Shown piece by piece: positions 18,392 to 41,840 of a stretch of 64,000 nucleotides of DNA. Origin of the DNA: Candidatus Pacebacteria bacterium CG_4_9_14_0_2_um_filter_40_15. Lineage in GTDB: Bacteria; Patescibacteriota; Microgenomatia; UBA1400; PJMF01. Both the position numbers and the translations under genes were made by a program. Each line of letters opens with the position of its first letter. The first letter of the stretch is position 1. The notes beneath the pieces were generated by a model that did not search any database, was not told the DNA's origin, and saw only the letters and a program-made list of their open reading frames with translations. The DNA lies in NCBI GenBank assembly GCA_002788675.1, contig PFRS01000005.1:314635-378634 (forward strand), given 5' to 3'.

Positions 18392-18398
18392 TTTTACA

Positions 18399-19395: not shown

Positions 19396-19430
19396 AGAGT
19401 AAGTATATCAGACCTGATAGATGTATCGTT

Positions 19431-20833: not shown

Positions 20834-20840
20834 CTAGTTG

Positions 20841-21086: not shown

Positions 21087-21126
21087 ACAATTCTCTTTCT
21101 GTAACATTTGTTACAAAGGTATACGC

Positions 21127-27501: not shown

Positions 27502-28302
27502 TTATATTGGATCAGGCTCAAATTCCCCACCCATTCCGGAACATTGCATGTTTGAATATTCTTTTGTACGTATATTCAAGTCCATCTCACAACCAGCCTC
27601 CTGGTGAAAACCAGTAAGTACCTTACAATCTTCATCAGTGCATTGTATTGCCCCGACTATACCGACATTAAATCTAGGCAAGTCGATAGACTCTAAATAG
27701 AAGAAGTGACTGAGTGCCTCAGTAACATTTCCCTCTTTTTTTTCTACCTGATAACGATACCTGTCAATTTTATTCGTTTGACCATTCACTACCCAAACTT
27801 CATTACCAACTATTTCAAAAAGGCGATCCTCAGCATAAATTGGACTTGAAACAGAAAAAATGTGAGGGCGAAACTCACCTGCATCCAACTCAAGAGCAAA
27901 TACACCACTATTTGAATCCTCTGATAAATAATCACTCAACCTAAAAGCTCTTATTTTTCCACCATCGATATCTTTTTCCAGTAACAACCTTTGTTCGTCT
28001 TCTTTTTCAGCTTCACGATTCTGGGGTGACACTACGGGTGTTGCTAAAGGTGTCATATTAGGTAACACCACCATTTGTTGGCTTTGTTCTTGTGATGCTG
28101 TAAAAGTACTTAAAAAATAACCACCAACTACACCTATCACTAAAGTCAGAGCTATCAGAAATACTGGTACTGCTCTACTTGAAGGATAATTTTTGGATGC
28201 ATGCAGACCTAAATCCGATAGTTCTTCAGAAACGGGTAGTTGGGAATTTGTATGCATATTCATGAGTGTAACAAAAATGAATGTAGAAAAACACCAGAAC
28301 AT
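27502..28302 (-). CDS. hypothetical membrane-anchored protein
   Basis: A single TM helix (VFLIALTLVIGVVGGYFLSTF) is followed by an extracytoplasmic domain with a C-terminal Cys pair. Confidence 0.35.
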   Translation of the reverse strand: MFWCFSTFIFVTLMNMHTNSQLPVSEELSDLGLHASKNYPSSRAVPVFLIALTLVIGVVGGYFLSTFTASQEQSQQMVVLPNMTPLATPVVSPQNREAEKEDEQRLLLEKDIDGGKIRAFRLSDYLSEDSNSGVFALELDAGEFRPHIFSVSSPIYAEDRLFEIVGNEVWVVNGQTNKIDRYRYQVEKKEGNVTEALSHFFYLESIDLPRFNVGIVGAIQCTDEDCKVLTGFHQEAGCEMDLNIRTKEYSNMQCSGMGGEFEPDPI

Positions 28303-28356
28303 ACGCTCAGAAATTAGAACGAGTCTAGAAACTATTTCAAAATAAAACTAAAAAAA

Positions 28357-28578
28357 TTAGTAAGCTTTTGTCGCGCCGTCTGCAATTGCTTTTTCAGCAT
28401 TTGCTTTAGACATCATTGCACAAACTGTTGTTCCACACGTGTGCTTTCCTTTAGCCATGAAACCACCTTTTGCAGTTTGGTGAATAGCTGGTGCTGACAA
28501 TTCAACGCCTTTTTCTTTACATTTAACGCAGTATCCTGTGACCATGACTGTCTCCCTATAAATTATATCTTGGTACAT
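28357..28578 (-). CDS. small Cys-rich (zinc-ribbon-like) protein
   Basis: It has a CVKCK...HTCGTTVC arrangement of four cysteines. The start is probably at MVTGYC. Confidence 0.35.
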   Translation of the reverse strand: MYQDIIYRETVMVTGYCVKCKEKGVELSAPAIHQTAKGGFMAKGKHTCGTTVCAMMSKANAEKAIADGATKAY

Positions 28579-28702
28579 TGTACAGCCATTTTATGATGAT
28601 GCATACCTTAAAGATAAAAGCAGACCAATCTACTGTTTTTTTCGGTGGCAAATTCAAAATTTTGTATCAGAAAATATAAAACGTAAGCTCATAATTCGCA
28701 TC

Positions 28703-29155
28703 TTACAAATAATCATCGATCTTAATTTTCTTTTGCTGCATCAATATCTGAAATGAGTTTGGTCTCTGCATGAGTTCTTCTATATTTTCAGGAACAATTT
28801 GCCAACTCAAACCGTATGTATCTTTACACCAACCACACTGCTCAGAATCAGGATGTGCAGAAAGTTTACTCCAATAGTAATCTATCTCTGATTGGTCTTT
28901 ACAAAACACAGCAAAAGATACCGCTTCAGTAAATTTGAATTCGTCACCTGCATTTATAGCGGTAAAGGCCTGACCATTTAATTCAAAATCGATTGTTAAC
29001 ACCTTACCCGCAAATTCCTTTTGAAAATCTGCTAGGCCTTCTTCAGGATAGTAAACAGTACTAATAACTTTACTATCCTTAAAAACTGATGTGTAAAATT
29101 CTACGGCTTCTTGAGCATTTCTTGAAAACCACAAGTTGGGAATAATTTTTTTCAT
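28703..29155 (-). CDS. VOC-superfamily protein, PhnB/3-demethylubiquinone-9 3-methyltransferase-like domain
   Basis: The N-terminus IIPNLWFSRNAQEAVEFYTSVF is characteristic of the PhnB-like family, and the length is about 150 aa. Confidence 0.6.
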   Translation of the reverse strand: MKKIIPNLWFSRNAQEAVEFYTSVFKDSKVISTVYYPEEGLADFQKEFAGKVLTIDFELNGQAFTAINAGDEFKFTEAVSFAVFCKDQSEIDYYWSKLSAHPDSEQCGWCKDTYGLSWQIVPENIEELMQRPNSFQILMQQKKIKIDDYL

Positions 29156-29177
29156 ACTTTTAACCCTTTCAATGGAT

Positions 29178-29528
29178 TTATTTTCTTAAAATTTTTTCAA
29201 TTGTTTTACCTTTTGCCAACTCATCTATCAACTTATCCAAGAAACGGATCTCTTTCATTAGTGGTTCTTTAATTTCTTGTATTTTTACACCACATATACT
29301 ACCTGTAATCAAAAACCTAGAAGGATTTAATTTTGTTGCTTGTTTAAAAAAAGTCTCGAAGTCTGTTTGTTTTTTTATGTGAGCATCCAGATCATGTTGA
29401 GAGTAACCTGTTAACCAGGTAATAATCTCATCTACTTCTGATTTAGTTCTTCCTTTTTTCTCAACTTTTGCAATATAAAGTGGATACACACTGGCAAAAC
29501 TCATTGTATAAATTCTTTGTGAAGTCAT
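29178..29528 (-). CDS. DUF2200-family protein
   Basis: [39 protein letters not shown] matches my recollection of the DUF2200 family consensus. Confidence 0.5.
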
Positions 29529-29588
29529 AGTATGGTATATCCTTTTTTTGAATTATCAGTTTATAAATAGTTATTCGGCTAGAGCTAT

Positions 29589-29969
29589 TTATGCTTCAAC
29601 TTCAACAACAAAACCACCATATGCCATTTTTTTCATATCAAATGGCATTTGAAAATCTTTGTATTCTGAGGCATTTTCACCCATCTCTTCCATGACTTTA
29701 GCATTAACTTGATCCCGATGTTCTTTTGACTTAAACACTATAAATGAAAACCAAACCGATTCACTGTTTTTTGCGCCTGCCATTTCTGTAAATGAGCGTG
29801 ATTTTTCCTCACCCATTTCTTGTGCAGCCATGTCATCTCCACGACACTCATAATATTCTAATGCACCATGCTTCATCCAGGAATCTCTGCCATCTTCGGC
29901 CATTTTTTTATATTCTTCAGATTTGTCTTTTGGGACTACTAATACGAATCCATCAATATATTTTGACAT
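29589..29969 (-). CDS. DUF1428-family protein
   Basis: YIDGFVLVVPKDKSEEYKKMAE...GALEYYEC at the N-terminus and a C-terminal YGGF are typical of DUF1428. Confidence 0.55.
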   Translation of the reverse strand: MSKYIDGFVLVVPKDKSEEYKKMAEDGRDSWMKHGALEYYECRGDDMAAQEMGEEKSRSFTEMAGAKNSESVWFSFIVFKSKEHRDQVNAKVMEEMGENASEYKDFQMPFDMKKMAYGGFVVEVEA

Positions 29970-30146
29970 ATTTGCCTTCCGAATAGTTTACTTTTATGAA
30001 AGTATATCAGAAGTTTAAGCGTCCACTGCGTGGTATTACACCTACTTGAAGAAAAAAGTATTGCTGAGTATCTGGAACAATTGTGGTATTATTGGCTCAC
30101 AGCTATAGAGGAAATTAGAAACTGTTTTACCTGAAAAAATTGAAAA

Positions 30147-30428
30147 CTATGATTTGTTTTTCCCAGTGAGAATAAGTGTGTCTGAGGCGTCGTTGTGAAC
30201 TTTTCCACTACCGACATGTTTACTGCTGATTTTTGAACCGTTCTTAATGACATGAAACAATGCCATGCCATGTCCACGACCCAGCTCATACTCATCTTTT
30301 AGCCAAGTAAGTACTTCGCTTGCTTTAGTACTTTTACCAAAACCTTTCAGTTTAGCTTCATCTAAAAGCTGTTGTGGAGTTTTACCTGTTTTTTCTTCAA
30401 TTTTATCTAGGTATGCTTGAAACGACAT
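30147..30428 (-). CDS. DUF4287-family protein
   Basis: MSFQAYLDKIEEKTGKTPQQLLDEAKLKG is the recognisable DUF4287 N-terminus. Confidence 0.5.
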   Translation of the reverse strand: MSFQAYLDKIEEKTGKTPQQLLDEAKLKGFGKSTKASEVLTWLKDEYELGRGHGMALFHVIKNGSKISSKHVGSGKVHNDASDTLILTGKNKS

Positions 30429-30861
30429 AGCTCTATTATACGTTAAAAATCTATATTTTCCAAAAAAAAGGTTCTAACCTCTACTTCTGGGTATTATGTT
30501 ATTAAGATATTCTTCTTGAAGTAAAATAAAGGGCTCCCCAGAAAGGTTGTACTCGAACTAGGAGGTGGGTTGAAGGTTATTTATTCAAAAATAACAAACT
30601 CATCTTAAAATCTGCGTGTCAATTTTAATTCTATAGATTAGTTCGAGACCCATCGGGATCAATAAAAATTACTTGAGATAAAAAATTAAAGGTATTAAAC
30701 CCCAGGGCAAGCCCAGGACCAAATTCCGAGGCAAGCCTCGGGGTATTAACCGCATAAGGAAAAATTAAACTAGGAAAGACCCTTAATATAATATTTAGTA
30801 TTTGATCCCCCCCCACAATAGATCAATCACTCTAAAAGCGTAGGTATTGCTAGTAAAAATT

Positions 30862-31008
30862 TTATAATTTAAACCCTAATAAGCGGGCGATAAATACTAT
30901 TACTGCGATAACCAACAGCAGATGAATCATACCTCCCCCCATTTTTAAACCAAATCCACCTATCCACGAAATGACTAAAATTGCGATAATGATGTCTATT
31001 ATCCCCAT
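30862..31008 (-). CDS. lmo0937-family small membrane protein (48 aa)
   Basis: The ORF is not in the supplied track. MGIIDIIIAILVISWIGGFGLKMGGGMIHLLLVIAVIVFIARLLGFKL matches the conserved GGG(L/M)IHLLLVIAV core of this family, and an AGGAG RBS lies upstream. Confidence 0.5.
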   Translation of the reverse strand: MGIIDIIIAILVISWIGGFGLKMGGGMIHLLLVIAVIVFIARLLGFKL

Positions 31009-31047
31009 ATTTCTCCTTTTTTTAATTAACTACTAGTTCTAAATAAA

Positions 31048-31344
31048 CTATTTCTTCCAGATCTTTTTTACTTCTTTATTAGATTTTTTTGCAGCATCAG
31101 CTGTTTGTTCTAATTTTGATTTACTATCAGCGACTTGATCATTAGCTGTCTTCATATAAGTTGAAGCCTTTGCTTTTACGTCATCGACAATTTCTTTAAC
31201 CTTTTCTTGATTTTTATTATTTCTCATTGCCACTACTCCTGCAGCAACCACACTAGCGCCGACAACGGCTCCAGTGACAGCAGCGACGACTGTATTTGAA
31301 ACATTCTTTAGGTCATCCGATTTTTTTTGTTTAGTATTAGTCAT
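31048..31344 (-). CDS. YtxH-like membrane-anchored protein
   Basis: An N-terminal Ala/Gly/Val-rich TM segment (VVAAVTGAVVGASVVAAGVVA) is followed by a charged helical tail. Confidence 0.35.
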   Translation of the reverse strand: MTNTKQKKSDDLKNVSNTVVAAVTGAVVGASVVAAGVVAMRNNKNQEKVKEIVDDVKAKASTYMKTANDQVADSKSKLEQTADAAKKSNKEVKKIWKK

Positions 31345-31376
31345 AATTTTTAACTTTCTTTTCTAATTTATAGTAA

Positions 31377-31598
31377 TTATTCTATAGGGTTAGCTGGAGC
31401 ATCAACATTTACCTGTGGAGCCTCGACATTTATTTCTGGGGTTGGTACATTTACCTGGATTACTCTCCTGCTTTGCAATGCAGGAATCCCATACGTAACT
31501 AGTAAACCCAAGGAAACTATCAAGAAAACTACTACAATGATGAAGCCAAATCCACCAGAGTTTTGCTGTGGTGCTGGGTTATTTACAACTGTTGCCAT
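31377..31598 (-). CDS. small hypothetical membrane protein
   Basis: 73 aa with one TM helix. Confidence 0.3.
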   Translation of the reverse strand: MATVVNNPAPQQNSGGFGFIIVVVFLIVSLGLLVTYGIPALQSRRVIQVNVPTPEINVEAPQVNVDAPANPIE

Positions 31599-31715
31599 AT
31601 CACTCCTTTTATTTCAATTAATTATCTTCAAAGATAAGTATGCGCCGATTAATCACTAGATTCAGTGACTTGACACAGAAAAGGTTTGTGAGGGAAATTA
31701 CAAGTTAGCTGTGAG

Positions 31716-32375
31716 TTAAAGATTTTTTGTGCTAATGAGTTCTTGCTCTAACTTGGCAATATTACTAAAAATCATGTTATGATCGACAAATTCAACTAAT
31801 TTTTTTTGGGCTAATTTACCTAACTCAATACTAACTGTTTCTCTAGCGACCCCAACTAACGAGGCAATATCTTGATGAGTGAAACGATGCTGTACAATTA
31901 TTTTAGTCCCATTTTTATTACCAAAATAGGTAGCCAGGTAGAGTAGAACGGAAATAACTCTCCTGTACGCATCACTAAAAACTAAGTGTTCGATTCTTGC
32001 GAGTGATTCTTCATAGCGTCTGAGTAGTTCACACATTAGCTCAGAAATTAAATCTGGCTTGTTTTTAATAAACTCCAAGACCTGATTCTTTGGAGCTCTA
32101 CCAATCTCAACAGGTGTAAGTGCCTCATAAAAATATACGTTTGGCGTATTGTTGAAAGCCCATACCATGGGGAAATAGGAAATAGGTTGCAGAATATGTA
32201 AAGTTAATTCTTCACCAGTATGCGAAATAATATATTGGCGAACATATCCTTTAGTGAGGCAAAAAATACCTTGAGGGTCATCATCCGCCCTGATCAGCAT
32301 TTCTCCTTGTTTATACAATCGCAGTTGAAACTGAGAAAAAAATTCTTCAAATACTTTGGTTTTACTTTTATTCAC
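31716..32375 (-). CDS. Crp/Fnr-family transcriptional regulator
   Basis: A cNMP-binding-like beta-roll is followed by a C-terminal HTH (RFTHQDIASLVGVARETVSIELGKL). Confidence 0.7.
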   Translation of the reverse strand: MNKSKTKVFEEFFSQFQLRLYKQGEMLIRADDDPQGIFCLTKGYVRQYIISHTGEELTLHILQPISYFPMVWAFNNTPNVYFYEALTPVEIGRAPKNQVLEFIKNKPDLISELMCELLRRYEESLARIEHLVFSDAYRRVISVLLYLATYFGNKNGTKIIVQHRFTHQDIASLVGVARETVSIELGKLAQKKLVEFVDHNMIFSNIAKLEQELISTKNL

Positions 32376-32529
32376 TATCTTGATTATAGCCTATGCATAG
32401 CAAAATTTGTGAGCAATAGAGGTTAATGGCTCGCCGTGATGGACGATATTCGAACTGAGCTATTCAAAAAATCATTTCCATATTTGTCATATTCAGAAAT
32501 AGAAAACTTGCTAAATACAATTTAAAAAG

Positions 32530-33426
32530 CTAATCTTTCAAAGATGATATATCAATGCTTTCGGAAATATCACCTGGGTTTAAATCTAATTGAAAATATT
32601 GACTTCCGTCACTGCCTTTTGAATTTATTTCTATTTCTAAATTAACTGGCTTCTCATTAATAGTGATAAAAAGATAGTCATTGAAAAAAAATGCACCTTG
32701 CTCAGGCTTGATTTCAGAAATATCACAGCTTGCAAGTCTGTCAGAACATTGAATGTTTGTTCTGTAATTTCTAGTAATGTCAATATTAGGTAAAAATGAA
32801 GACAATCCCATTAAATAATTGTCACAAGTCGGCGTAGGTTTTTCTGGTAAATTTAAATCATAAATAGAGTCCTTAATATATCCCTCTGAAAGCCTTGCAT
32901 TTATTGATATACGTTCATCGTACCTATCTGAGTTAACCTTTAGCATAAAACAAATAGTATTTTTACCACTCTTGAAATATGAGTCCAATCTTTCAATATA
33001 ATCTTGAAGCAATTCGATGTAATCGGCTACATCTTGCCTTGATTTAATTCCATCAAAAGGAAATCTGATTAATGGATTAACTAAATTTGGTAGTTCTTCT
33101 TCCAATTCTTGAATCTCATCTTTAATTGCCCGCACTGTCTCTTCGGCTGTTAACTTATAAAAACTTGCATCTATTTCAAACTTTGTAGTTGAGTTTTTAC
33201 TCTTTTCATTTGCAATATATTCTTTTCTCCACACATTATATATGGATATAAAAACAATGATTATTAAATAATAATTAGTCAGACTTTTGGGTAAAGTATA
33301 TGCGTCACCATTGCTGATATAAACAGAAATAAAATCATAAACAGATGGGAGCAACAATGCCAAATTTGACCACTGCAAAAAAACTCTACTGATAAATATG
33401 TAAATTTTAATAATTTCTTTCTTCAT
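32530..33426 (-). CDS. hypothetical membrane protein, last gene of island cargo operon (possible effector)
   Basis: 298 aa with two N-terminal TM helices (LALLLPSVYDFISVYI and YYLIIIVFISIYNVW), then a coiled coil and an Asp/Ile-rich C-terminal domain. Its start overlaps the upstream gene's stop (ATGA), which implies translational coupling. Confidence 0.45.
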   Translation of the reverse strand: MKKEIIKIYIFISRVFLQWSNLALLLPSVYDFISVYISNGDAYTLPKSLTNYYLIIIVFISIYNVWRKEYIANEKSKNSTTKFEIDASFYKLTAEETVRAIKDEIQELEEELPNLVNPLIRFPFDGIKSRQDVADYIELLQDYIERLDSYFKSGKNTICFMLKVNSDRYDERISINARLSEGYIKDSIYDLNLPEKPTPTCDNYLMGLSSFLPNIDITRNYRTNIQCSDRLASCDISEIKPEQGAFFFNDYLFITINEKPVNLEIEINSKGSDGSQYFQLDLNPGDISESIDISSLKD

Positions 33427-35249
33427 AATTTCTCAAGTTCATTTTTCAAAAAATAGGCAGCAGACATGTGGTTTTTTGCAATGCTTTTATCTAAATCTCT
33501 ACTTAGCACTCTCTTACTTCTTCTTTCTATATCTCTGCTCAATCTATGTTTTAGTTCAATTAAATTTTCATTTTCTGTTCCTTCAAACTTAAACTTTAAA
33601 AAATGACATCCAGTGATTACATATACCTTTTCATCCAATCCTGCTTCCTCTTGGCTTTCCCACAAAGCTTTTGGGAAAGGTGCGCTCATATTTATTGTCT
33701 TATTAAAAAATAACTTAGCTACATTTACAGCATCAGTATTTTTTACAGATTTAACTGTTCCAATATAAGTTGATGCGCCCCCGTAAATGAAATTACTTGA
33801 AAGCACATGATTTGAGATGCAAGCATTATTAAAAACAAAAGGAAAGGACTCTGGGTCAGACAAACTTGAAAATGATGGAATAAAGTTCTTTGAAACTCCT
33901 TTTGTAACTATTACATTACAATAATTTACGTTTTTCACTTTTCTCTGTTTTAAAACTTTCCAATCTTTTCTCTTCAACTTTGAGAACTCTGACACTATTT
34001 TTTTCGATGAACCCGGTTTATAAGTTTTCTCATACCATGGGCTTCCATCTAACTCTACAAATTCATAGAAGCTTTTAACATTAATTATGGCATCTTCACC
34101 TGTCCCAAAACCTGTGGGTTCGAAGGAATCTATAGCATCAACCACTATGACATGCTCACAGCCTCTACTATCAACAAACTGTATATCAAACCTTTGACCT
34201 TCTGGAAGTCCTCCATGACTACATATAAACAATAAATCGTAGGGATAAAACTGAATAGAATTGCTTAATTCGTAGTTTGTAAATTGATTATCCCAAAACT
34301 CTTTGGTAATAACTTCTTTTTGAGCCAACAAGTCACTCACATCATCTGTTTCAGAATCAGAAAAGAATCCAGTATCTACGAGAAGCGCTGATTTCACGAT
34401 TATTTCAGGGTTTGCTATTGATTCAGCGATAAAGTAGCCAGGCATTATTCGTCCTAAAATATGAGTTGATGCAATATTAGGATAGAAATAACCATAAGGA
34501 ATTTCATCAGTATAAAATGTCACAAAATCATAAGCTTCGATTTCACCAAAGTCCGCATCTAGCTCTGATTTTATACTTGCATTAATTTCTCTAGCTACAT
34601 CGCCTCTCGCTTCATTTGAATCATTATCAAAAATCAAAGCGGCAATTTCTTTAGAGGAATATTCTAAATCTGTTTGTATGAATTTAATATCAGCGTTAAT
34701 GGAAAACGCATAGTTAGCAACTATGACAGGAGACAACTCATCATCAATATCGTAATAAACACAATGCTTACTTGTTTGTTTAAATGAATATTTATAATTA
34801 GCTTTATTCGTAATTACCAATCTTTGTTTGTTCTTTTTTGCTATTAAAAGTGCTTGAGCAACTTTCTGTTTTTCTGGCTCACATTCTAAATTCCCCTCAA
34901 ACACAATATTCATTGGTTCTGCGATTTCCGACTTTATTTGAGATTTTTTTGTTACTGTTATGTATCTTTCTTCTGGAATTCGCAATTGGTCTTTGATGAT
35001 TTTAATGTATTTAGGATTAACACCCGCAAAAATACATATCTCAGGCCTAATCTTAGCCAAAATATTGTTTAGCTTTATTAATTCGTTACTCCAGTCATCT
35101 CTCAAAAACCTTGGTAATTCAAAAACACAAAAATAATCATTTGGTTCATAAAAACAACTTGATATTTGAGCAGCTAATATATGGTTCCCACTTATACATA
35201 TAACTTTATTTTTTATTGTCGGTGCGTTATCTGAATAGCTATGCATCAA
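33423..35249 (-). CDS. large hypothetical protein with caspase/CHAT-like His-Gly and Ala-Cys motifs (tentative protease)
   Basis: 608 aa. LLFICSHGGLPEG has the hydrophobic-x-S/G-H-G pattern of caspase-fold His. About 130 aa downstream, FVFNNACISN has the hydrophobic-A-C-x-S pattern of the caspase-fold Cys. There is no P-loop. The function is inferred only from these motifs. Confidence 0.4.
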   Translation of the reverse strand: MMHSYSDNAPTIKNKVICISGNHILAAQISSCFYEPNDYFCVFELPRFLRDDWSNELIKLNNILAKIRPEICIFAGVNPKYIKIIKDQLRIPEERYITVTKKSQIKSEIAEPMNIVFEGNLECEPEKQKVAQALLIAKKNKQRLVITNKANYKYSFKQTSKHCVYYDIDDELSPVIVANYAFSINADIKFIQTDLEYSSKEIAALIFDNDSNEARGDVAREINASIKSELDADFGEIEAYDFVTFYTDEIPYGYFYPNIASTHILGRIMPGYFIAESIANPEIIVKSALLVDTGFFSDSETDDVSDLLAQKEVITKEFWDNQFTNYELSNSIQFYPYDLLFICSHGGLPEGQRFDIQFVDSRGCEHVIVVDAIDSFEPTGFGTGEDAIINVKSFYEFVELDGSPWYEKTYKPGSSKKIVSEFSKLKRKDWKVLKQRKVKNVNYCNVIVTKGVSKNFIPSFSSLSDPESFPFVFNNACISNHVLSSNFIYGGASTYIGTVKSVKNTDAVNVAKLFFNKTINMSAPFPKALWESQEEAGLDEKVYVITGCHFLKFKFEGTENENLIELKHRLSRDIERRSKRVLSRDLDKSIAKNHMSAAYFLKNELEKL

Positions 35250-35252
35250 TTT

Positions 35253-35924
35253 TTAATCCTGTCTCTCTTGCCAAGGGGCTATATTGCTCTCCCCAGTTTC
35301 TTCTGTTCTTACTTCTCTAGGACTAATGACCTCTTTACTAAAAACAATATCTGGTAAATCATATTTCTTATCGTATTCAAATGCCTCTTTTCCAACGTTA
35401 ATTTCAAAAACAGATGTTGTGGGGTTTACTACAACCAACTCAGCAATTGTATCCGGGTGGTTTCTCACATTCCTAACTGCCCATATTGGATAATCTATTA
35501 ACTTCTCATTTGCATACTTCTTTATCTCTTCATAATCAACACCATCTGTAGTAAATAAATGTACAAGCATCAAATATTCTGAAGAATAAGCTCCGCTCAA
35601 TTTCCTAGTCCTAATGAGCTGTTCAAGCAAAGACTCTTTAGATTTACGATAGCTAGTTAATTCAATAGTGGTTATATCCATTGACACACCATTTGGCTGC
35701 ATGAGATATGCATCTGGCGGGTCTTGCAGCGGCATTCGTAGATAAGTTGGCAAACCTCTAATTTTACTCAACACAAACGCTGCTATTGCAGCAATTCTAG
35801 ACTCTCTGACTACCTTATTCTCAGGTTTTATTAAAGCCCCAACACCTTGCTCCTGTTCAAATTTTTGAATATGCATGAATGTGTTTGTCGGAGAATGCCA
35901 TCTTTTATTAAATTGTCTTTTCAT
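35253..35924 (-). CDS. hypothetical protein (island cargo operon)
   Basis: 223 aa with no recognisable motif. It is tightly packed between neighbours, with a 4-nt gap to the downstream gene. Confidence 0.4.
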   Translation of the reverse strand: MKRQFNKRWHSPTNTFMHIQKFEQEQGVGALIKPENKVVRESRIAAIAAFVLSKIRGLPTYLRMPLQDPPDAYLMQPNGVSMDITTIELTSYRKSKESLLEQLIRTRKLSGAYSSEYLMLVHLFTTDGVDYEEIKKYANEKLIDYPIWAVRNVRNHPDTIAELVVVNPTTSVFEINVGKEAFEYDKKYDLPDIVFSKEVISPREVRTEETGESNIAPWQERQD

Positions 35925-36023
35925 CTTGATTTTATTGTATCAAAATAAAACATTTATAATAAAATGGATTTATGATATTGACTGGCGATTTATTAATTCT
36001 GATTTAAGGTAGTGCTTCTAACA

Positions 36024-36836
36024 CTATCCCTTAGCAATTGCGTCAGCCCAACTGTATTTATCATCTTTGTAAATCTTTTTCATTTTTCTATCAAAATCTC
36101 TCCAATTTTTTACCAACTCTGGCATCTCAATCTTTTGTTCGTGAGGAAGTCCTATATCTGCATTGAAATTTAGCGGATTAATTTGAAAACCATTTTTTGT
36201 AACTAGTGCAATCTGCAAATGTTTGCTCACACCCGGATGAGGATTTCTAAAAACATCGTATGACAATACAACTCCCAATACCTGTGCGTAACCAAATTGA
36301 TTTCCTACCTCCATCTGCATAAGCTTCTCAGGCTCACTATGAATTCTTTCCAAATCATCTAGATAGACTTGCTTATTGTTACCACTTCCAATCGATAAAG
36401 GACTATGCACCCTTGAAGCTTCATACTCAAAACTGGGTGCTTTTAACTTCGCTACAAAAGACTTTGGTTGTCCTTTACTCCCATTATCTGCTATAGGGTC
36501 TACTGCAACTATAATCATGGAGAACGGTCTTTTCTTTTCTTCAGGAAGCTTTGAGTATAGTTCTTTCGCCCTTTTACCCCACTCTCTGGCTAATTGGTCA
36601 GGAATCCATCCTCCTTTACTCCTGGATGACATAAAGTCCCTTAAGGCTTGAGTAAACATAAACCCTGTTTCTATATCACCACTAAAACCAGACATAGCAA
36701 ACTCACCTACTGGATATATTTTTTGAACAACATCATGGAAATCTTCTTTACCATCAGGGAAAGATACAGTAGCTTGAACATCAGAGATTAAAACACCATA
36801 GCCAAACATTGTAGGAATACCAATAACCCAAGTCAT
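36024..36836 (-). CDS. proteasome beta-subunit/Anbu/HslV-like Ntn-hydrolase (Thr1 peptidase family), putative
   Basis: The N-terminus MTWVIGIPTMFGYGVLISDVQATV has Thr at position 2, which would be the nucleophile once Met is removed. It continues as hydrophobic-G...GxVL(I/A)(S/A)D..(A)T with Asp about 17 residues after the Thr. QKIYPVGEFAMSGFSGDIETG then parallels the proteasome SKIhhI.....hGsGAGD block around Lys33. The length is 270 aa. Confidence 0.5.
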   Translation of the reverse strand: MTWVIGIPTMFGYGVLISDVQATVSFPDGKEDFHDVVQKIYPVGEFAMSGFSGDIETGFMFTQALRDFMSSRSKGGWIPDQLAREWGKRAKELYSKLPEEKKRPFSMIIVAVDPIADNGSKGQPKSFVAKLKAPSFEYEASRVHSPLSIGSGNNKQVYLDDLERIHSEPEKLMQMEVGNQFGYAQVLGVVLSYDVFRNPHPGVSKHLQIALVTKNGFQINPLNFNADIGLPHEQKIEMPELVKNWRDFDRKMKKIYKDDKYSWADAIAKG

Positions 36837-36870
36837 ATACCAATTATAACCCGAAAATAATTATTGCGAT

Positions 36871-37179
36871 TTAAGAACTTAAGTATTGCTCTTTACACTC
36901 TTTGCGAAGATTATCTCTGCCGTTTGATGTTGCATCATATAATCTTGTGCAATCTTCTCCCTCAAGTCCATTATTCTCACAAGCTCTAGGAAGTGCTTCT
37001 ATGTTGTTAGAGTACCATTCTTCAGCTTTACCTAAGCAGGATTCATATTGTTCCTGTCTGTCTTTTAGAGCCTCTTCCTCTTTAATTTTATCCTGTCTCC
37101 ACATAATGAATATTCCTAATATCGTGAACGAAATTATTAATGCTGCGATTACAAGTGAATTTATTTTTTTCATATTCAT
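36871..37179 (-). CDS. small membrane-anchored Cys-rich protein, first gene of cargo operon
   Basis: An N-terminal TM helix (LVIAALIISFTILGIFIMW) is followed by a charged domain with four cysteines. Confidence 0.4.
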   Translation of the reverse strand: MNMKKINSLVIAALIISFTILGIFIMWRQDKIKEEEALKDRQEQYESCLGKAEEWYSNNIEALPRACENNGLEGEDCTRLYDATSNGRDNLRKECKEQYLSS

Positions 37180-37191
37180 ATTTTACTATGA

Positions 37192-37215
37192 ATACTGCGT
37201 TGTTGCATACTGCGG
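37192..37215. promoter_or_regulatory. direct repeats ATACTGCG x2 in divergent promoter region between cargo operon and XRE gene (candidate operator)
   Basis: ATACTGCG occurs at 37192..37199 and again at 37208..37215, inside the 54-bp intergenic region between divergently transcribed genes. Confidence 0.3.
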
Positions 37216-37233
37216 AATAGTCAAGAATTACTC

Positions 37234-37455
37234 TTGATGGAAGAAAAGCAAAAAGTAACAGAACTAGTGGGAGATGAAATTCGAAAACACAGAGAAGAAT
37301 CTGGTCTTTCGCAGGAAGAACTTTCAGCAAAAGCTGGTTTATATAGAACCTATGTTGGTCATGTAGAAGTAGGTCGTTACACACCTTCAATCTATACTCT
37401 CTTCAAGATAGCCAGAGCTCTCAAAGTTAAAGTCTCAGAAATAATACCCTTTTAG
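37234..37455 (+). CDS. XRE-family helix-turn-helix transcriptional regulator
   Basis: The HTH_3 core is LSQEELSAKAGLYRTYVGHVEVGRYTPSIYTLFKIARALKV. Confidence 0.7.
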   Translation: MMEEKQKVTELVGDEIRKHREESGLSQEELSAKAGLYRTYVGHVEVGRYTPSIYTLFKIARALKVKVSEIIPF

Positions 37456-37633
37456 TGGGAAAAGACCCCTTATTCCCATATATGGAAAAAACTTTCTCTT
37501 TAATGAGAGAAGGTTAATAGCCTATGGGGGGGCTGGACATGGTAAAAACCCACCAAATAATTTCTGATATTGCAGTCTCAGCTCAAAAATTCGCACTAAA
37601 TTTTGTACTCGTATCTTATACAATATAGTTAAT

Positions 37634-38323
37634 ATGAGTATGATTATGGATAATGAAGAACTACATGAAGCTATTGCAGACTTTAGCATGAGTGAGCTTA
37701 GTGAAGTGAAAGACTTACTGGTTGAAATTATCTCAAGTTACAAAAACTTTCATAAGGATGAACTGGCATTTAGTATTCAAGTTGATACTAAAAAAAAGAG
37801 AACTATTTACCTTTTAGAAGGTTTACTATCACATGCTGATATCTACTACACTCCAAGCACATTACGATGGTCTAAAGATGGTGAATACTTAGTTGATTTT
37901 GGTGCAAAGGATGGTGATTGGCTTGAATACTCAGCAGTATCTACACTAGAGCAAATACGAAAAGCAATTAATGACAGACTTGTAAATCAAGCTGATTCAA
38001 AATTGAAGCTATCAACCAAAAACAACTTGATTCATATTGTGCATTACAGAAAAGATGGCTCAATAGTTACAGCAAAAATTTTAGGAAATTCTAATAGTGG
38101 AAAAATTTTAAGTTCTTTGAGAAAGAATTCAGCGATGACTCTAAGTGAATTATCTAAAGTCATGAATGAACCAAGAAAACATGCCGATAGTCCTCTTCCA
38201 GAAAAGAGAGTCCACGATGCCATCAAATACATTAGAGATAAACTCAAAATTGAAGCTAACTCACCAAATGACATTTTCAATATCGTTGGCAAAGAATGCC
38301 AGCTAATCATTCCTACTGAATAA
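37634..38323 (+). CDS. hypothetical protein with C-terminal OmpR/PhoB-type winged-helix DNA-binding domain
   Basis: The C-terminus RVHDAIKYIRDKLKIEANSPNDIFNIVGKECQLI parallels the trans_reg_C recognition region (VDVHIRRLRKKL....I.TVRGVGY.L). There is no receiver domain. Confidence 0.4.
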   Translation: MSMIMDNEELHEAIADFSMSELSEVKDLLVEIISSYKNFHKDELAFSIQVDTKKKRTIYLLEGLLSHADIYYTPSTLRWSKDGEYLVDFGAKDGDWLEYSAVSTLEQIRKAINDRLVNQADSKLKLSTKNNLIHIVHYRKDGSIVTAKILGNSNSGKILSSLRKNSAMTLSELSKVMNEPRKHADSPLPEKRVHDAIKYIRDKLKIEANSPNDIFNIVGKECQLIIPTE

Positions 38324-38421
38324 ACTTCCATAACTTCCGAAAAAATCCGACAAACTCTTGGCTAAATTGCTAAGAGTTTTTTGTTTTTAACCGAAGTAAA
38401 TTACTAGAGAATATATCTAGT

Positions 38422-38670
38422 ATGAAGAACAAAACGAATTATTATAGCTCTGATTTATCACTGGTCACTACTCTTTCTTTAGACTTTCCAATCATTGGAA
38501 TAGATAGAAGAAATCCATCTAGGATTATCTTTGAATTTGAAAGCTCTAGAGAATTATCCGCCCGAATAAAAGAATACTGGAATGCTGAATTATTTATTGA
38601 GCCACAACGATTTTTTACACAACTAAAGTATATAAAAGCACAAGTATTTGGGAGGCCTAATGCTGAGTAA
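38422..38670 (+). CDS. hypothetical protein
   Basis: An 82-aa ORF in the island backbone. Confidence 0.3.
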   Translation: MKNKTNYYSSDLSLVTTLSLDFPIIGIDRRNPSRIIFEFESSRELSARIKEYWNAELFIEPQRFFTQLKYIKAQVFGRPNAE

Positions 38671-38836
38671 TAAATCAGTAATCAGCCTCCAGCAAGTCAT
38701 GAACGAAGATGGTTTACATCTAAACCAAGAAGAGACAAGGTCTCTTGGTGAGTTGTTAGTCAGTATAGGACTTCAATTAAAAATGAGTATTAAAAATAAT
38801 AATGAATATGAAAATAAAAACACAAAGCGTAGTTGA
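38648..38836 (+). CDS. hypothetical small protein
   Basis: A 62-aa ORF that overlaps its neighbours. Coding status is uncertain. Confidence 0.2.
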   Translation: MGGLMLSNKSVISLQQVMNEDGLHLNQEETRSLGELLVSIGLQLKMSIKNNNEYENKNTKRS

Positions 38837-39644
38837 TACTGCACACTATTTTCTATCACAACGAGTAAGCATTATTCCTGTCACAAAAGACAAGAAGCCG
38901 TATGCAGGGTTTAGTTGGGATGCATATAAAAAACGCTTTCCCACTCAGGATGAAATAGATATCTGGTTTAGATATGTATATCCAAATGCAAATTTAGCCA
39001 TAGTAACTGGAGCGCTTTCAAAACTAATAATACTAGATATAGACCCCAGAAATGGTGGTGATATATCTTTGTTAAAAAACAATAAAAGCCCATCAGTTTC
39101 AACACCAAACAATGGAAAACACATATATTTCAGACCAACTAACCTTGTAAAATCTGCCAAGCATAGTGCACTAGGATATGACCTACTCTATGAAGCTTTA
39201 GCTCTTGTCCCGCCCTCCCTTACAGTAAATGGTGCATATGAATGGATAAACTCATTTAATAGAAATAACATAGAAGAGTTTCCAAAATATTTACTTAGCA
39301 AGCTAGAACTCATTCAACCTAAACAGAATGAAGCTTCTGCCAAACCACTTAGTCAAAAAAAAGGCAATCAAAAAACTCAGTTAAGAGGTATTGAGGTTAG
39401 GCACGCACGAGATTATCCCCTAGATAGATTGCTATTAAGTGATGGTGTAAATCTCATCCAACGAACAAATAGCTACCACCTTACCTGCCCATTTCATAGT
39501 GATAGGAAGTCTTCAGCTGTTTACTATCCATCCACCAACTTGGTTTATTGCTTCAAATGTTCAAGAGCATTTAATCCAATTGATTACCTAACGATAGCAA
39601 AAGGTTATTCATTCAGGGAAGCCTTAAAGGAATTAACAGAATGA
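38802..39644 (+). CDS. bifunctional primase-polymerase (Prim-Pol) N-terminal domain protein with CHC2 zinc finger
   Basis: The N-terminus IPVTKDKKPYAGFSWDAYKKRFPTQDEIDIW...NLAIVTG...LIILDID matches the Prim-Pol pattern (PVxxxKxP....W.......#....W......NhGhhhG...hhhhDhD). The C-terminal CPFHSD...CFKC is a CHC2 DnaG-type zinc finger. Confidence 0.6.
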   Translation: MNMKIKTQSVVDTAHYFLSQRVSIIPVTKDKKPYAGFSWDAYKKRFPTQDEIDIWFRYVYPNANLAIVTGALSKLIILDIDPRNGGDISLLKNNKSPSVSTPNNGKHIYFRPTNLVKSAKHSALGYDLLYEALALVPPSLTVNGAYEWINSFNRNNIEEFPKYLLSKLELIQPKQNEASAKPLSQKKGNQKTQLRGIEVRHARDYPLDRLLLSDGVNLIQRTNSYHLTCPFHSDRKSSAVYYPSTNLVYCFKCSRAFNPIDYLTIAKGYSFREALKELTE

Positions 39645-40051
39645 AAAGCAAGGCATTAAGAATAAAAGAAAAGAGAACAAAAGGTTTTCTTAAATTTCCA
39701 AGAAAACTTATTGAGCTTGTTCTCAGTGGAGATGTATCTGATAGAGCTTTCAGTCTATACCTGGTTATTATCAACCTTGCTGTTTATTCTGAAAATAGTT
39801 CCTACTATGGATGCCTTGAACTTAATCCTCATAACCTTTCAGAAATTTTCTCTAAATCTTCAAATACAGTTAGCAAAAACTTTAATGAACTTCTCTCACT
39901 TGGTCTCATTAACAAAGTAGACAAAGATTTGATTGAGGTTATCAACTTCAAAAAACTGTTTGATGATACTCAATATATGGAGGAAGCTTCCTCAGATTTA
40001 GTTAATAAAGTTTCAAAAATGAGAGGAGAAATATCACATATGAAAAGCTAA
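39641..40051 (+). CDS. hypothetical protein (island backbone)
   Basis: 136 aa. It overlaps the Prim-Pol gene by 4 nt. Confidence 0.35.
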   Translation: MKSKALRIKEKRTKGFLKFPRKLIELVLSGDVSDRAFSLYLVIINLAVYSENSSYYGCLELNPHNLSEIFSKSSNTVSKNFNELLSLGLINKVDKDLIEVINFKKLFDDTQYMEEASSDLVNKVSKMRGEISHMKS

Positions 40052-40175
40052 GCAGCACTTTTCACCTATGTACTGGTGAATTTAAATGCTTATTAAGGTT
40101 CTTAATGTTATTAGGTTTCTTAGTAAGAAATACATAAACAATAAAGTATATATACCTGTGAATACGTAGGTTAGA

Positions 40176-41780
40176 ATGAAAGATAATATGAACAATAAAA
40201 ACATAGCTGCACTCTGGTGCAGAGTAAGCAGTCCAGACCAAGAAACTTCTGGGTATTCACTACCTGCTCAGGAAGAACTTTTAAGAGAGTACGCTACACG
40301 AAAAGGAATTCAAAAGGTTGATTTTTTCTCTGTTTCAGAAAGTGCTAAATCTAGTCAAGTAAGAGCAAGTTTTAAAGAGCTGTTCAGCCATGTAAAAAAA
40401 CATAACATCAATATAGTAATTTGCGAAAAAGTTGACAGATTAACCAGAAACTTTTACGACATGATAATGATTGATGAATGGCTTGAGAAAGACCATGAAA
40501 GAGAAATACACCTCGTAAAAGATTCGCTAGTTCTTCACGCTGGCTCTCGTTCTCAGGATAAATTAAATTGGAACTTAAAAGTTTTATTAGCAAAAAATTA
40601 CATTGATAATCTCAGAGAGGAAGTTAAAAAGGGTCAACTGATGAAACTCAAGCATGGCTGGCTACCAACTAGACCTCCATATGGTTATAAAACTGAAGGA
40701 AACAAGGGGCACAAAATTCACGTCATAGATAATGAAACTGCACCAATTGTAAAGAAACTCTTTCAACTCTACTCAACTGGCAACTACTCACTTAAAGCCA
40801 TTACAGAAAAAGCAAATGAGCTTGGTTTAAGAAGTTCAAAGGGTAATCCAGTTGTTAAAAGTAGAATACACAAACTGCTTCAGGATAAGTTCTACATTGG
40901 CATTAATATTTGGAATGATACTGAGTATCCTGGTAAACAAGAAACATTCATCGAGGAAGAATTATTCTACCTGGTGAAGAGGGTTATGAAAGGTGGCTTT
41001 AACAATACACGCACTTACTCAAAGCATAACTATCTTTTTAGAGGAATGTTTAAGTGTGAACACTGTAAAGGCACAATCACCTGGGAAGAACAGAAAGGTA
41101 TTGTGTATGGTCACTGCAACCACTACAAACCATGCCCCTCAAAAGATTGGGCTCGTGAAGATTCTGTCGAAAAGCAAGTTAAAAAGTCATTAAAGTCACT
41201 GGTAATAAAAAACAAGCGAGTATTAAACTGGCTAAGAGATGAACTGAGCACACGCATTCATGAAGAAACTGATGTATATGTAGCTTCAATAGAACAACTT
41301 AAAAAAGACTTAGTGCTCACTGAAAGGGCTCAAGAGCGACTCTATGATGACAAGCTTTATGAACGTATCCCTGAGTCAATGTATGACCGAAAGGCAAATG
41401 AGTTTAAGAATAAGACTAAGAAGCTAGAGAAACAAATAAAGGAGCTCTCTGGTGGCACTGATAAAGCTAGACAGGTCGGACTAAGTATCTTTGACCTTGC
41501 ACAAGGTGGTCATATCATTTATGAAAAAGCTGATATTGAGAAACGTCAGCTACTTTTAAAACTGGTATATAAAACAAGAGAAATTTTCGAGGATACTTGT
41601 AGCTTAGAGTATACGGAAGAAATGGCATTACTATTGAAAGCAGTCAACCAGACTAATCGTTCGAAACTGGTGAAAAAAGTTGAGAAAATGGAAGCTACTT
41701 TCGAACCATCTGAAAAGATTGATTTAGCAAGAAAAAGTGACTCTTTTATGTCCTTGCGGACTGGTTTGCTCCCCCGGTAG
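40176..41780 (+). CDS. large serine recombinase (integrase)
   Basis: It has a resolvase-type catalytic domain whose nucleophile Ser lies in LWCRVSSPDQ and a conserved DRLTRN. A recombinase domain follows, then a zinc-ribbon (CEHCKG...GHCNHYKPC) and a C-terminal coiled coil. Its stop codon at 41778..41780 lies inside the tRNA-Asn 3' end. Confidence 0.85.
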   Translation: MKDNMNNKNIAALWCRVSSPDQETSGYSLPAQEELLREYATRKGIQKVDFFSVSESAKSSQVRASFKELFSHVKKHNINIVICEKVDRLTRNFYDMIMIDEWLEKDHEREIHLVKDSLVLHAGSRSQDKLNWNLKVLLAKNYIDNLREEVKKGQLMKLKHGWLPTRPPYGYKTEGNKGHKIHVIDNETAPIVKKLFQLYSTGNYSLKAITEKANELGLRSSKGNPVVKSRIHKLLQDKFYIGINIWNDTEYPGKQETFIEEELFYLVKRVMKGGFNNTRTYSKHNYLFRGMFKCEHCKGTITWEEQKGIVYGHCNHYKPCPSKDWAREDSVEKQVKKSLKSLVIKNKRVLNWLRDELSTRIHEETDVYVASIEQLKKDLVLTERAQERLYDDKLYERIPESMYDRKANEFKNKTKKLEKQIKELSGGTDKARQVGLSIFDLAQGGHIIYEKADIEKRQLLLKLVYKTREIFEDTCSLEYTEEMALLLKAVNQTNRSKLVKKVEKMEATFEPSEKIDLARKSDSFMSLRTGLLPR

Positions 41781-41840
41781 GATTCGAACCTACAACCTAC
41801 CGGTTAACAGCCGGGCGCTCTGCCATTGAGCTACAGGGGA
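41769..41840 (-). tRNA. tRNA-Asn (anticodon GTT), CCA not encoded
   Basis: A hand-folded cloverleaf on the minus strand has a 7-bp acceptor stem (UCCCCUG/CGGGGGA), a D-arm (GCUC-AAUGGCA-GAGC), the anticodon loop CUGUUAA, a T-arm (GUAGG-UUCGAAU-CCUAC) and discriminator G. Confidence 0.8.

Follow-up and report, generated by a model that had tools for sequence, protein, structure and literature searches.

The DNA considered here is a 64-kb stretch (contig PFRS01000005.1; the window) from a Candidatus Pacebacteria bacterium, a member of the candidate phyla radiation (CPR/Patescibacteria), in which a probable integrative element of 9.34 kb extends from the tetranucleotide GCTC at 32429..32432 to a second GCTC at 41768..41771. 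At its right end lies an intact gene for tRNA-Asn(GTT), the only transfer RNA (tRNA) gene identified in the window by ARAGORN, which faces the gene for a large serine recombinase (integrase) on the opposite strand. An earlier note, made from the letters alone, had described the region as AT-rich mobile DNA at this tRNA gene, with the integrase gene ending inside the acceptor arm and with a gene for a Prim-Pol protein carrying a CHC2 zinc finger, a gene for a winged-helix protein, small open reading frames (ORFs) and an XRE regulator gene upstream. Pfam and PHROG matches confirmed this set of genes (Table 1), the TAG stop codon of the integrase gene (41778..41780) was located 13 nt inside the 3′ end of the tRNA gene, and the codons for L532, P533 and R534 as well as the stop codon overlap the tRNA. 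The gene content, which is firmly established, is organized as a conserved backbone (XRE, p229, DUF5659, a small ORF, PrimPol-CHC2, the winged-helix protein and the integrase) and a variable cargo slot on the opposite strand, adjoining the left attachment site (attL); the PrimPol protein would drive autonomous replication of the element. The GC fraction is 0.340 in 32429..41771, compared with 0.372–0.377 in the left flank and 0.411 in the right flank; the AT shift is real but modest, and the uniform composition named in the earlier note as a sign of ancestral DNA was not found. The interval 32429..41771 is very likely an integrative, and probably self-replicating, element that was inserted by recombination of attP with attB through the action of the large serine integrase. 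The general reading of the region as an integrated element that occupies a tRNA-Asn gene and encodes a serine integrase, a PrimPol module and an XRE regulator is supported; the description of its backbone as typical holds for an integrative element as such and fails in two respects, as tRNA targeting by a serine integrase and the position of attP within the integrase ORF are atypical.

The left attachment site was recognized by the motif GCTC-N8-GGACGA-N2-TTCGAAC, which occurs once in the window (chance expectation, 0.01). A position weight matrix (PWM) built from the P′ arms of 13 other loci, with the window left out, scored the site at 32429 at 37.4 and the next best site in the 64 kb, on either strand (128 kb in total), at 8.5. 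The motif is common to the outer cargo edge of the element in the window and of two related elements (L015 and L016), and it is found several kb upstream of the integrase gene at ten further loci (L021, L038, L039, L067, L070, L078, L083, L092, L094 and L095); the attL set as a whole comprises 15 sites from 13 loci. At the right attachment site (attR), an alignment of more than 40 loci revealed a conserved P arm (..CTCGTCC-N6-), followed by the core GCTC (GCTG at tRNA-Gln) and then by the tRNA gene, the acceptor and T arms of which constitute the B′ arm. Both sites are regarded as established. The earlier note had placed the left boundary between 30.4 and 32.5 kb; the inner limit of this range, at the junction of the Crp gene and the cargo, proved correct (32429..32432), and the outer limit at 30.4 kb did not. 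A short imperfect repeat of the sequence around 41775..41790, for which a search of the same range had been proposed, was not recovered as a long imperfect repeat, only the four nucleotides GCTC being shared. No second copy of the tRNA 3′ region was found in the window when up to three mismatches were allowed, no direct repeat of 11 nt or more was present, and general repeat finding was also empty, because the attachment sites share only the 4-nt core GCTC, as expected for a serine integrase. The element shows neither the combination of an intact tRNA gene with a displaced tRNA fragment nor the tyrosine integrase that make up the Islander signature.

The sequences TCGTCC (P arm) and GGACGA (P′ arm) are reverse complements of each other, and each is located 9 nt from the T|C centre of GCTC; because the two are equidistant from this centre, the reconstructed attP forms a dyad with a non-palindromic central TC. 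The outer motif TTCGAAC occupies half-site positions 18–24 in the P′ arm and 13–19 in the tRNA arm, in which it corresponds to the antisense strand of the T loop, and it is therefore 5 bp nearer the core in the tRNA arm. For the Listeria integrase, the attB zinc-ribbon-domain motif was shown to be displaced inwards by 5 bp with respect to that of attP, bp 16–24 being modelled onto 11–19 (Rutherford et al., 2013; PMC3783163), and the shift of TTCGAAC closely matches this arrangement. As judged from these alignments, the attachment sites appear to have the geometry of serine-integrase sites, being short, with a dyad attP and a shifted zinc-ribbon-domain motif, and the outer motif of attB, recognized by the zinc-ribbon domain, appears to be the T-loop sequence TTCGAAC. 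In tandem arrays at three loci (L070, L048 and L015), the junction is repeated only up to GCTC, which places the crossover there. The attB site would be the 3′ end of the tRNA-Asn gene, with TC within GCTC as the likely crossover dinucleotide (antisense of tRNA positions ~71–74), and integration would exchange the last nucleotides of the tRNA and its 3′ trailer for identical bases, so that the tRNA stays intact. The predicted attP and attB junctions of the element are CCTTGCGGACTGGTTTGCTCGCCGTGATGGACGATATTCGAAC and GCAATAGAGGTTAATGGCTCCCCCGGTAGGATTCGAACC, respectively.

The integrase is predicted to be a large serine recombinase on the grounds of its catalytic domain, its Recombinase domain and a borderline zinc ribbon. 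Residues R16, S18, Q22, D87, R88 and R91 and cysteines C294, C297, C314 and C320 are invariant across 16 homologues, and the first six of these appear comparable to the catalytic serine and conserved pocket arginines of Bxb1 and phiC31 as listed in PMC12884075, the comparison being with that list and not a residue-by-residue alignment. A profile search for the integrase in one genome per species returned at least 537 relatives, and the best 80 (36–51% identity), almost all from metagenome-assembled genomes of Patescibacteria, were examined for overlap with a tRNA gene. At 44 of these 80 loci, the 3′ end of the integrase gene meets a tRNA gene of the opposite strand (Asn(GTT), 33; Gln, 6; Asp, 3; Val, 1; Ser, 1), and the integrase ORF overlaps it by 13–63 nt in every one of the 44; at several of the remaining 36 loci, the contig ends too near the integrase gene for a judgement. 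The association of the family with tRNA genes is accordingly an established property.

The closest homologues of the integrase are 57% and 54% identical and are found in L015 and in L016–L018, which have the same backbone, in the order small ORFs, XRE, a 204–230-aa protein, DUF5659, a small ORF, PrimPol or a 487-aa protein, the winged-helix protein and the integrase; a DUF5659 homologue is a recurring companion, encoded 1–2.5 kb upstream of the integrase gene at many of the 80 loci. The cargo of L015 consists of N6_N4_Mtase, DUF87 and a 446-aa protein, and that of L016 of DruA, a 412-aa protein and DUF87. The earlier note had held that the same gene order without a recombinase in relatives would speak against an insertion; related elements were found to share the backbone and to differ in cargo, which favours the insertion. 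A decayed sister element, in which the backbone has been lost and the cargo kept, is present in L099/L100 (8347..13190), where the tRNA-Asn gene is accompanied by a ~85-nt remnant of the integrase 3′ end, a 470-aa gene, homologues of the cargo genes c608 (52%) and c298 (36%), of which the latter directly follows the former, a 115-aa gene and a degenerate attL (GTTC GCAACCTTGAGACGAGATTCGAAC), with the flank genes DUF1801 and DUF4287 beyond it and no XRE-to-integrase backbone. The tRNA-specific serine integrases of CPR bacteria apparently form a large, undescribed family with an integration-dependent change of the C-terminus and a swappable cargo slot.

Second, distantly related large serine recombinases (24–39% identity) are encoded elsewhere in L015 (172..1937), L026, L047, L048, L066, L070, L072 and L075, mostly several kb upstream of the family integrase; that of L015 has 523 aa, is preceded by an HTH_17 gene and has a reading frame that continues across the attL of the adjoining element. 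At these loci, distinct serine-integrase elements are arrayed in tandem at one tRNA gene. Downstream of the integrase gene in L016 (11581..11800), a tRNA-like sequence stops matching after the T loop (GCTCCCTGACTAGGAGCCGAAC..) and is followed by a tyrosine integrase gene and phage-like genes, which hints at another insertion, either within this tRNA gene or next to it.

The reconstructed junction places attP inside the integrase ORF, and the excised form would encode a protein of ~562 aa consisting of residues 1–532 followed by AVMDDIRTELFKKSFPYLSYSEIENLLNTI, and thus ending in a conserved tail of ~31 residues; on integration, the segment encoding the tail would come to lie at the opposite end of the element, and the integrated gene encodes a 534-aa form that ends in the tRNA-encoded LPR* (asterisks denote stop codons). 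Read in the integrase frame across the core (G|CTC), the P′ arm has 25–36 open codons at 13 of the 15 attL sites and encodes a conserved peptide with the consensus LAxWDDFRTIxWxxxxxxPxIxLxEIxxLL (for example, LALTDDFITIDWAKEYPFPNIALAEIRSLLV* in L078); at the other two sites (L038 and L095), only 15 codons are open. The core G is the third codon base at all 39 scorable loci, which establishes the frame relation as constant. Comparison of the C-termini of the 120 best database homologues showed that 16 carry the tail (median length, 552.5 aa; for example, ..WRRAWDDFRTLKWIEEIECPELIIKQVEQLLQAYN), 53 read into the T arm of the tRNA (..LLPRLDSNQQP.., of the DSNQ/DSNL type), and the remainder stop just past the core (..LLPG*, ..WLRG*); the existence of both protein forms is established. 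The peptide at 32.43 kb (WLAVMDDIRT..), which is similar to the C-terminus of the second recombinase of L015, had been considered as a remnant of an integrase pseudogene. This reading was dropped in favour of the P′ arm and tail of the element family, since no further integrase remnant lies upstream of it and the neighbouring integrase of L015 reads through the motif in a tandem array.

Table 1. Features of the tRNA-Asn locus in the window, with the matches or sequence properties on which each assignment is based.
Feature	Position	Strand	Basis and remarks
tRNA-Asn(GTT), intact, integration target	41768..41840	-	ARAGORN; Rfam 41769..41840, 69.6 bits
attL	32429..32455	+	Core GCTC 32429..32432; P′ arm GGACGA 32441..32446 and TTCGAAC 32449..32455; probable crossover TC 32431..32432
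Detached integrase 3′ end, 31 codons + stop, LAVMDDIRTELFKKSFPYLSYSEIENLLNTI*	32430..32525	+	Would join the integrase in frame across the core after excision
attR	41738..41789	+	P arm (integrase 3′ coding) to 41767; core GCTC 41768..41771; TTCGAAC 41783..41789
Large serine recombinase, 534 aa in the integrated form (predicted)	40176..41780	+	Resolvase PF00239 1.2e-17 (residues 12-155); Recombinase PF07508 4e-15; PHROG integrase 2.6e-72
Winged-helix protein, replisome-organiser/DnaD-like	39641..40051	+	Phage_rep_org_N 3e-04 (sub-threshold); PHROG replication initiation O-like 1.5e-06, DnaD-like 2.1e-06
PrimPol + C-terminal CHC2 zinc finger, putative replication initiator/primase	38802..39644	+	Prim-Pol 9.4e-17; Zn_ribbon_DnaG 9.9e-12; PHROG DNA primase/polymerase
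Small ORF, 62 aa (58 aa in other assemblies)	38648..38836	+	35% identical to L016 counterpart; called as a gene in L001-L003
DUF5659 protein	38422..38670	+	PF18903 2.4e-08
p229 backbone gene	37634..38323	+	27% identical to L015 positional counterpart; no Pfam match
XRE-family helix-turn-helix (HTH) regulator, first backbone gene	37234..37455	+	HTH_3 7.8e-15; 72-74% identical to XRE of L015 and L016
s102, small gene, 102 aa, divergent from XRE	36871..37179	-	ORF list; N-terminal hydrophobic segment read from sequence; weak PHROG Rz-like spanin, E 0.0055
c270	36024..36836	-	Motif-level resemblance to N-terminal nucleophile (Ntn) hydrolases (proteasome-beta/HslV type)
c223	35253..35924	-	No Pfam, PADLOC or PHROG match; orphan
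c608, predicted divergent CHAT (caspase-like) protease, N-terminal Rossmann-like domains	33423..35249	-	Pfam matches of homologues; invariant dyad; AlphaFold2 fold
c298	32530..33426	-	Two N-terminal hydrophobic segments read from sequence; no Pfam or PADLOC match
Crp	31716..32375		Outside the element
DUF4287	30147..30428		Outside the element

A protein named from Candidatus Pacebacteria bacterium CG_4_9_14_3_um_filter has the same sequence as the integrase, and assembly GCA_002792605.1 and contigs from several groundwater metagenomes, the longest of 338 kb, carry the same arrangement at 100% identity. The earlier note had proposed a comparison with genomes that lack the insertion, and a co-occurring strain provides it: a contig of this strain (L007; ENA ERZ27293386 k141_134178) is 99.67% identical to the window over 11.4 kb of the right flank and the whole tRNA-Asn gene, does not carry the element and diverges at 41767, 1 nt beyond the core. 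This is a presence/absence polymorphism between strains, firmly established, with its breakpoint exactly at the 3′ end of the tRNA. Past the tRNA-Asn gene, L007 continues for 12 nt into a tRNA-Ser(TGA) gene at 11434..11518 (ARAGORN; Rfam, 42.5 bits), the acceptor stem of which is weak by manual pairing, and the contig ends there. Two independent assemblies of a near-identical strain (L008 and L009; 5–7 single-nucleotide polymorphisms) both have a contig end at 37469..37475, between XRE and p229, which suggests a branch point or microdiversity in this intergenic region. The gene calls for p229 range from 225 to 229 aa between assemblies, and a G7 run is present near ~37526.

Several observations weigh against the interpretation of 32429..41771 as an element mobilized by its own integrase. 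The left arm of L007 (..CATCAAAGTGTGCT|GCTC, followed by the tRNA-Ser gene) does not match the left flank of attL in the window (..AGAGGTTAATG|GCTC), and its tRNA-Ser gene is absent from the whole window and was not found in the incomplete JGI contig collection; simple excision therefore does not account for L007. The element is present on each of the 23 long contigs with the exact Crp protein, no empty site next to Crp being present among them, and it may be fixed in this sublineage. Neither the excised circle (attP junction) nor the exact empty site (attB with the left flank of the window) was found for this element, the sole collection scanned for them being the incomplete JGI set, which was scanned at the DNA level and in which the scan for attachment sites did not return known large contigs; a degenerate-pattern search for both junctions in the JGI contigs returned only an attL-bearing variant strain and one unrelated tRNA-Asn gene. 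No genes for a recombination directionality factor, for transfer between cells by conjugation or otherwise, or for packaging were identified in the element. The P arm of the window is less canonical than that of most relatives, with GTCCGC in place of GGACGA, the zinc ribbon match of the integrase (Zn_ribbon_recom PF13408; 4.2e-05, 24.3 bits) falls just under the cut-off of 25.3 bits, and the grounds for a defence role of the cargo are solely its fold and genomic context.

Some of these observations would also fit a larger mobile unit, extending from ~30.5–30.8 kb to 41.77 kb and including the Crp gene, two genes for small membrane proteins and a DUF5670 gene, in which the motif at 32429 would be an internal relic junction between two elements accreted in tandem. 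A contig of a variant strain (L103; 98.2% identity) keeps Crp, attL and the cargo together and departs from the window left of 30826, where it carries what is presumably an FAD-binding oxidoreductase gene, by the look of its translation. The GC fraction of 30533..32428 (0.355) is below that of both flanks, the element accompanies this Crp on all long contigs, and family members often form tandem arrays at one tRNA gene (for example, in L015, L048 and L070). Against this stand the lack of an att-like motif near 30.5–30.8 kb and the absence of an integrase remnant left of 32427; a candidate for a second, degenerate att-like site at 30533 (GCTCCCCAGAAAGGTTGTACTCGAAC) was rejected, as it lies outside the top 10 PWM matches. 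Moreover, the DNA to the left of the homologous attL is unrelated in L016 (an AAT gene) and L099 (DUF1801), and even in a larger unit, 32429..41771 would still be the part bounded by the sites of the resident integrase. The larger unit is accordingly considered unlikely, if the least so of the alternatives, and the Crp gene and the stretch at 30.4–32.4 kb are outside the integrase-defined element. The segment 30826..32428 may be an older accretion at the same hot spot; no recognizable attachment site (by PWM) or integrase remnant was found within it. To the left, TypA/BipA, HflX and an ABC-F ATPase are core genes, so the island does not span the whole left side of the window. A synteny search in species genomes with the YibE_F flank protein returned no relatives.

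It is improbable that the element is a decayed, immobile relic in the course of domestication for its cargo, with the tail segment as leftover sequence. Such a relic would agree with the failure to recover a circular or empty-site junction from the incomplete collection, with the presence of the element on every long Crp-bearing contig, and with the loss of the backbone and retention of cargo in L099. The integrase ORF is nevertheless of full length and retains the residues invariant in the family, including the putative catalytic serine S18, every backbone ORF is intact, with 100% identity between several samples, the tail frame is open over its 31 codons and fits the family consensus, and a co-occurring strain is without the element exactly at the core.

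The tail itself admits another explanation, namely that its open frame is a by-product of constraint on the P′ arm as DNA and not a translated, functional part of the integrase. The first ~8 codons coincide with the recognition motifs GGACGA and TTCGAAC, and the 15-codon tails of L038 and L095 would be accommodated by such a constraint. Conservation extends for ~22 codons past the DNA motif, however, with a hydrophobic periodicity (..P.I.L..EI..LL), and the frame relation with the integrase holds at each of the 39 loci at which it could be scored. Codon differences in the distal tail are distributed over positions 1, 2 and 3 as 71, 46 and 103, and 64 of the 146 differing codons (44%) are synonymous; this excess of third-position and synonymous changes points to selection on the peptide. 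Full-length tail-bearing proteins are also predicted on contigs from many independent samples. One of these contigs (L106; JGI 3300043569 Ga0453687_005727, 9769 bp) encodes a 552-aa tail-bearing integrase in the attP configuration together with element-type genes (XRE with an M78 peptidase, Phage_rep_O and HTH_36) and has no tRNA gene; no terminal overlap was found in this 9.8-kb contig, and its circularity is not supported in this respect. By eye, we take its core (TGGCGGAGAGC) to resemble the CCA-encoding 3′ end of another tRNA gene. On this evidence, a constraint acting on the DNA alone is as improbable as the decayed relic.

If the tail is a functional part of the protein, the two forms of the integrase would presumably differ in activity. 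It is a tentative and rather doubtful possibility that the integrase senses its own integration state, the tailed 562-aa form and the 534-aa form having different directionality, across a large CPR family that reads into tRNA 3′ ends and uses a universal T-loop sequence as the outer motif of attB. One such arrangement would be integration by the tailed form, with the tail-less form either competent for excision or locked, and this would replace or supplement a separate directionality factor. No natural serine integrase with attP inside its own gene was found in the literature.

Least probable of the alternatives is a phage satellite or small temperate virus in place of a plasmid-like integrative element. 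XRE with its divergent small ORF does resemble a lysogeny switch, PrimPol and replisome-organiser modules do occur in phages and satellites, and the integrase matches a PHROG integrase family (Table 1), but no capsid, terminase, portal, tail, lysis or hijacking genes were detected by Pfam or PHROGs, no relatives were found in IMG/VR with the integrase and PrimPol as queries, and 9.3 kb, half of it cargo, leaves little room for virion genes.

The minus strand of the integrative element carries five genes, from 37179 down to 32530, without a Pfam, PADLOC or useful PHROG match, of which c298, c608, c223 and c270 form the four-gene cargo cassette; none of c298, c608, c223, c270 and s102 matched PADLOC-DB 2.0 at E ≤ 0.01. 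No tblastn match to c298, c608, c223 or c270 was obtained among 84 related integrase loci, and the cargo is therefore specific to this element lineage. The c608 protein has ~420 representative relatives at E ≤ 0.001 and no direct Pfam match of its own; 22 of 39 homologues matched CHAT (PF12770), and H345 and C477 are invariant as a His-Cys dyad. Its AlphaFold2 model (predicted local distance difference test score (pLDDT), 91.9) matches SAVED-CHAT (8tl0), separase, gingipain, Csx29 and DdvA, with E values from 1.7e-06 to 1e-04 for the first three. From this model, which combines a caspase-like fold with the His-Cys dyad, c608 is predicted to be a divergent CHAT protease. Homologues of c608 were also found in the cargo slot of another XRE-DUF5659-PrimPol element (L104) and beside a restriction-modification system and a tyrosine integrase gene (L105). 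A role of the CHAT cassette as defence or abortive-infection cargo is plausible in view of the fold and these contexts. A subgroup of c608 homologues (P0126, P0129, P0131 and others; ~844 aa) has a conserved N-terminal extension of ~245 aa, and a homologue of this ~844-aa type stands alone near another serine-recombinase element in L101 (10001..12535). Neither c223 nor c270 showed significant similarity to this extension or to the 470-aa protein of L099, with which they had been compared as possible counterparts.

The c270 protein has two homologues among 5.8 billion proteins. Residues T2, D19, K39 and SIGSG148–152 are invariant, at positions compatible with a motif set of the Asp17/Lys33/Ser129-Gly type; the hhalign probability against HslV is 0.45%, a PDB profile search was empty, and the AlphaFold2 model has a pLDDT of 46. 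The assignment of c270 as a proteasome-like hydrolase is unproven.

The surroundings of the element contain further features. Beyond the Crp gene, its left side comprises two small membrane-type ORFs, the DUF5670 gene and the DUF4287 gene; adjoining the last of these, a noncoding stretch of ~600 nt (30430..31010) contains a C8 run near 30808 as well as paired hairpin-like repeats, for example CCGAGGCAAGCCTCGG and CCAGGGCAAGCCCAGG at ~30700..30745. Small accessory genes (DUF4287, DUF1428, DUF2200, PhnB-like 3-dmu-9_3-mt and DUF5679) flank the tRNA-Asn hot spot at 26814..30428, and likewise in L099 at 13247..21137, the DUF4287 protein of L099 being 66% identical to that of the window; this run may represent a variable region that is conserved on the tRNA-distal side. 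Minus-strand genes at 9108..12969 make up a metal-handling cluster, the products of which are a DsbD_2-cupredoxin fusion, an HMA-domain heavy-metal P-type ATPase and a YHS-domain regulator of the ArsR type. The right flank carries a Pyr_redox_2 (trxB-like) gene and, at ~46235..46654 between the sigma-70 and glutamate dehydrogenase genes, a 139-aa IS200/IS605-type Y1 transposase gene (PF01797; gene calls of L001).

According to Hudson et al. (2015; PMC4383910), only tyrosine integrases are known to specify tRNA genes as integration sites, and in a review of integrative mobilizable elements, those with serine recombinases are said to insert within genes, which they disrupt. A family of at least 537 members in species-representative genomes that targets tRNA genes contrasts with the former statement; no report of tRNA-specific serine integrases in CPR bacteria was found in the literature, nor was a description of this CPR family. 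Island-finding software seeks displaced tRNA fragments, and elements of this kind leave none. If TTCGAAC is a fixed outer half-site motif, this would explain moves among tRNA-Asn, Gln, Asp, Val and Ser and would provide a natural series of serine integrases with predictable attB sites. With attP inside the integrase ORF and a conserved, detachable tail, a simple hypothesis would be that directionality is controlled with no additional factor; how directionality is controlled is a central issue for serine integrases and for genome engineering with these enzymes. Mobile elements of CPR bacteria are poorly characterized, and those of the present kind appear to be among the chief carriers of exchangeable cargo in these hosts; cargo in the family includes Druantia-like genes, methylase/DUF87 sets and, in the present element, an undescribed CHAT-protease cassette.

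Among known systems, the phage-type large serine integrases (phiC31, Bxb1 and Listeria A118/LI) are alike in the Resolvase-Recombinase-zinc-ribbon architecture, in attachment sites that share few central bases, in the attP dyad and in the 5-bp motif shift. In the present case, however, the target is a functionally restored tRNA 3′ end and not a protein-coding or intergenic site, attP lies within the integrase ORF, with a consequent change of the C-terminus, the hosts are CPR/Patescibacteria, and a directionality factor is not evident. The tRNA islands of tyrosine integrases (Islander-type islands, integrative and conjugative elements of actinomycetes such as pSAM2, and P4-like elements) likewise have an integrase gene beside the 3′ end of a tRNA gene that is restored upon insertion, as well as tandem accretion and cargo, whereas the integrase here belongs to the unrelated serine family, the displaced tRNA fragment amounts to ~4 nt as compared with 25–76 bp, and the pairing of a tRNA with a tRNA fragment is absent.

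Tycheposons of Prochlorococcus resemble the present element as small tRNA-adjacent elements with primase/replication modules and exchangeable cargo. Their recombinases are overwhelmingly tyrosine recombinases, a large serine recombinase being found in 27 of 937, near tRNAs (Hackl et al., bioRxiv 10.1101/2020.12.28.424599). They occur in a different phylum, a split integrase ORF is unreported for them, and a sequence relationship to the present element was not found. Pipolins, according to the abstract of a study of these elements (PMC11551731), are commonly integrative, bimodular platforms with a reservoir of exchangeable defence systems; at that level of comparison, they encode a primer-independent PolB in place of the PrimPol and serine integrase found here. 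The cargo protein c608 is similar to CHAT defence effectors (SAVED-CHAT, Craspase Csx29 and gasdermin-activating proteases) in its predicted CHAT/caspase fold and His-Cys dyad, and it occupies a slot that holds restriction or Druantia-like genes in sister elements. It differs from these effectors in having no SAVED, TPR, CRISPR or gasdermin partner and no PADLOC match, and its partner genes c298, c223 and c270 represent unknown families.

The position of attP within a coding sequence has parallels among tyrosine recombinases, archaeal cases of which have been reviewed (PMC8371274). In the mycobacteriophages BPs and Brujita, attP is located inside the repressor gene, which is the gene remodelled in BPs, and in archaeal viruses of the SSV1 type it is located inside int, the SSV1 integrase gene being split into two large parts. 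By analogy, integration of the present element would also alter a protein, such that the element "knows" its own state; the difference is that here a tail of ~30 residues would be exchanged on a serine integrase.

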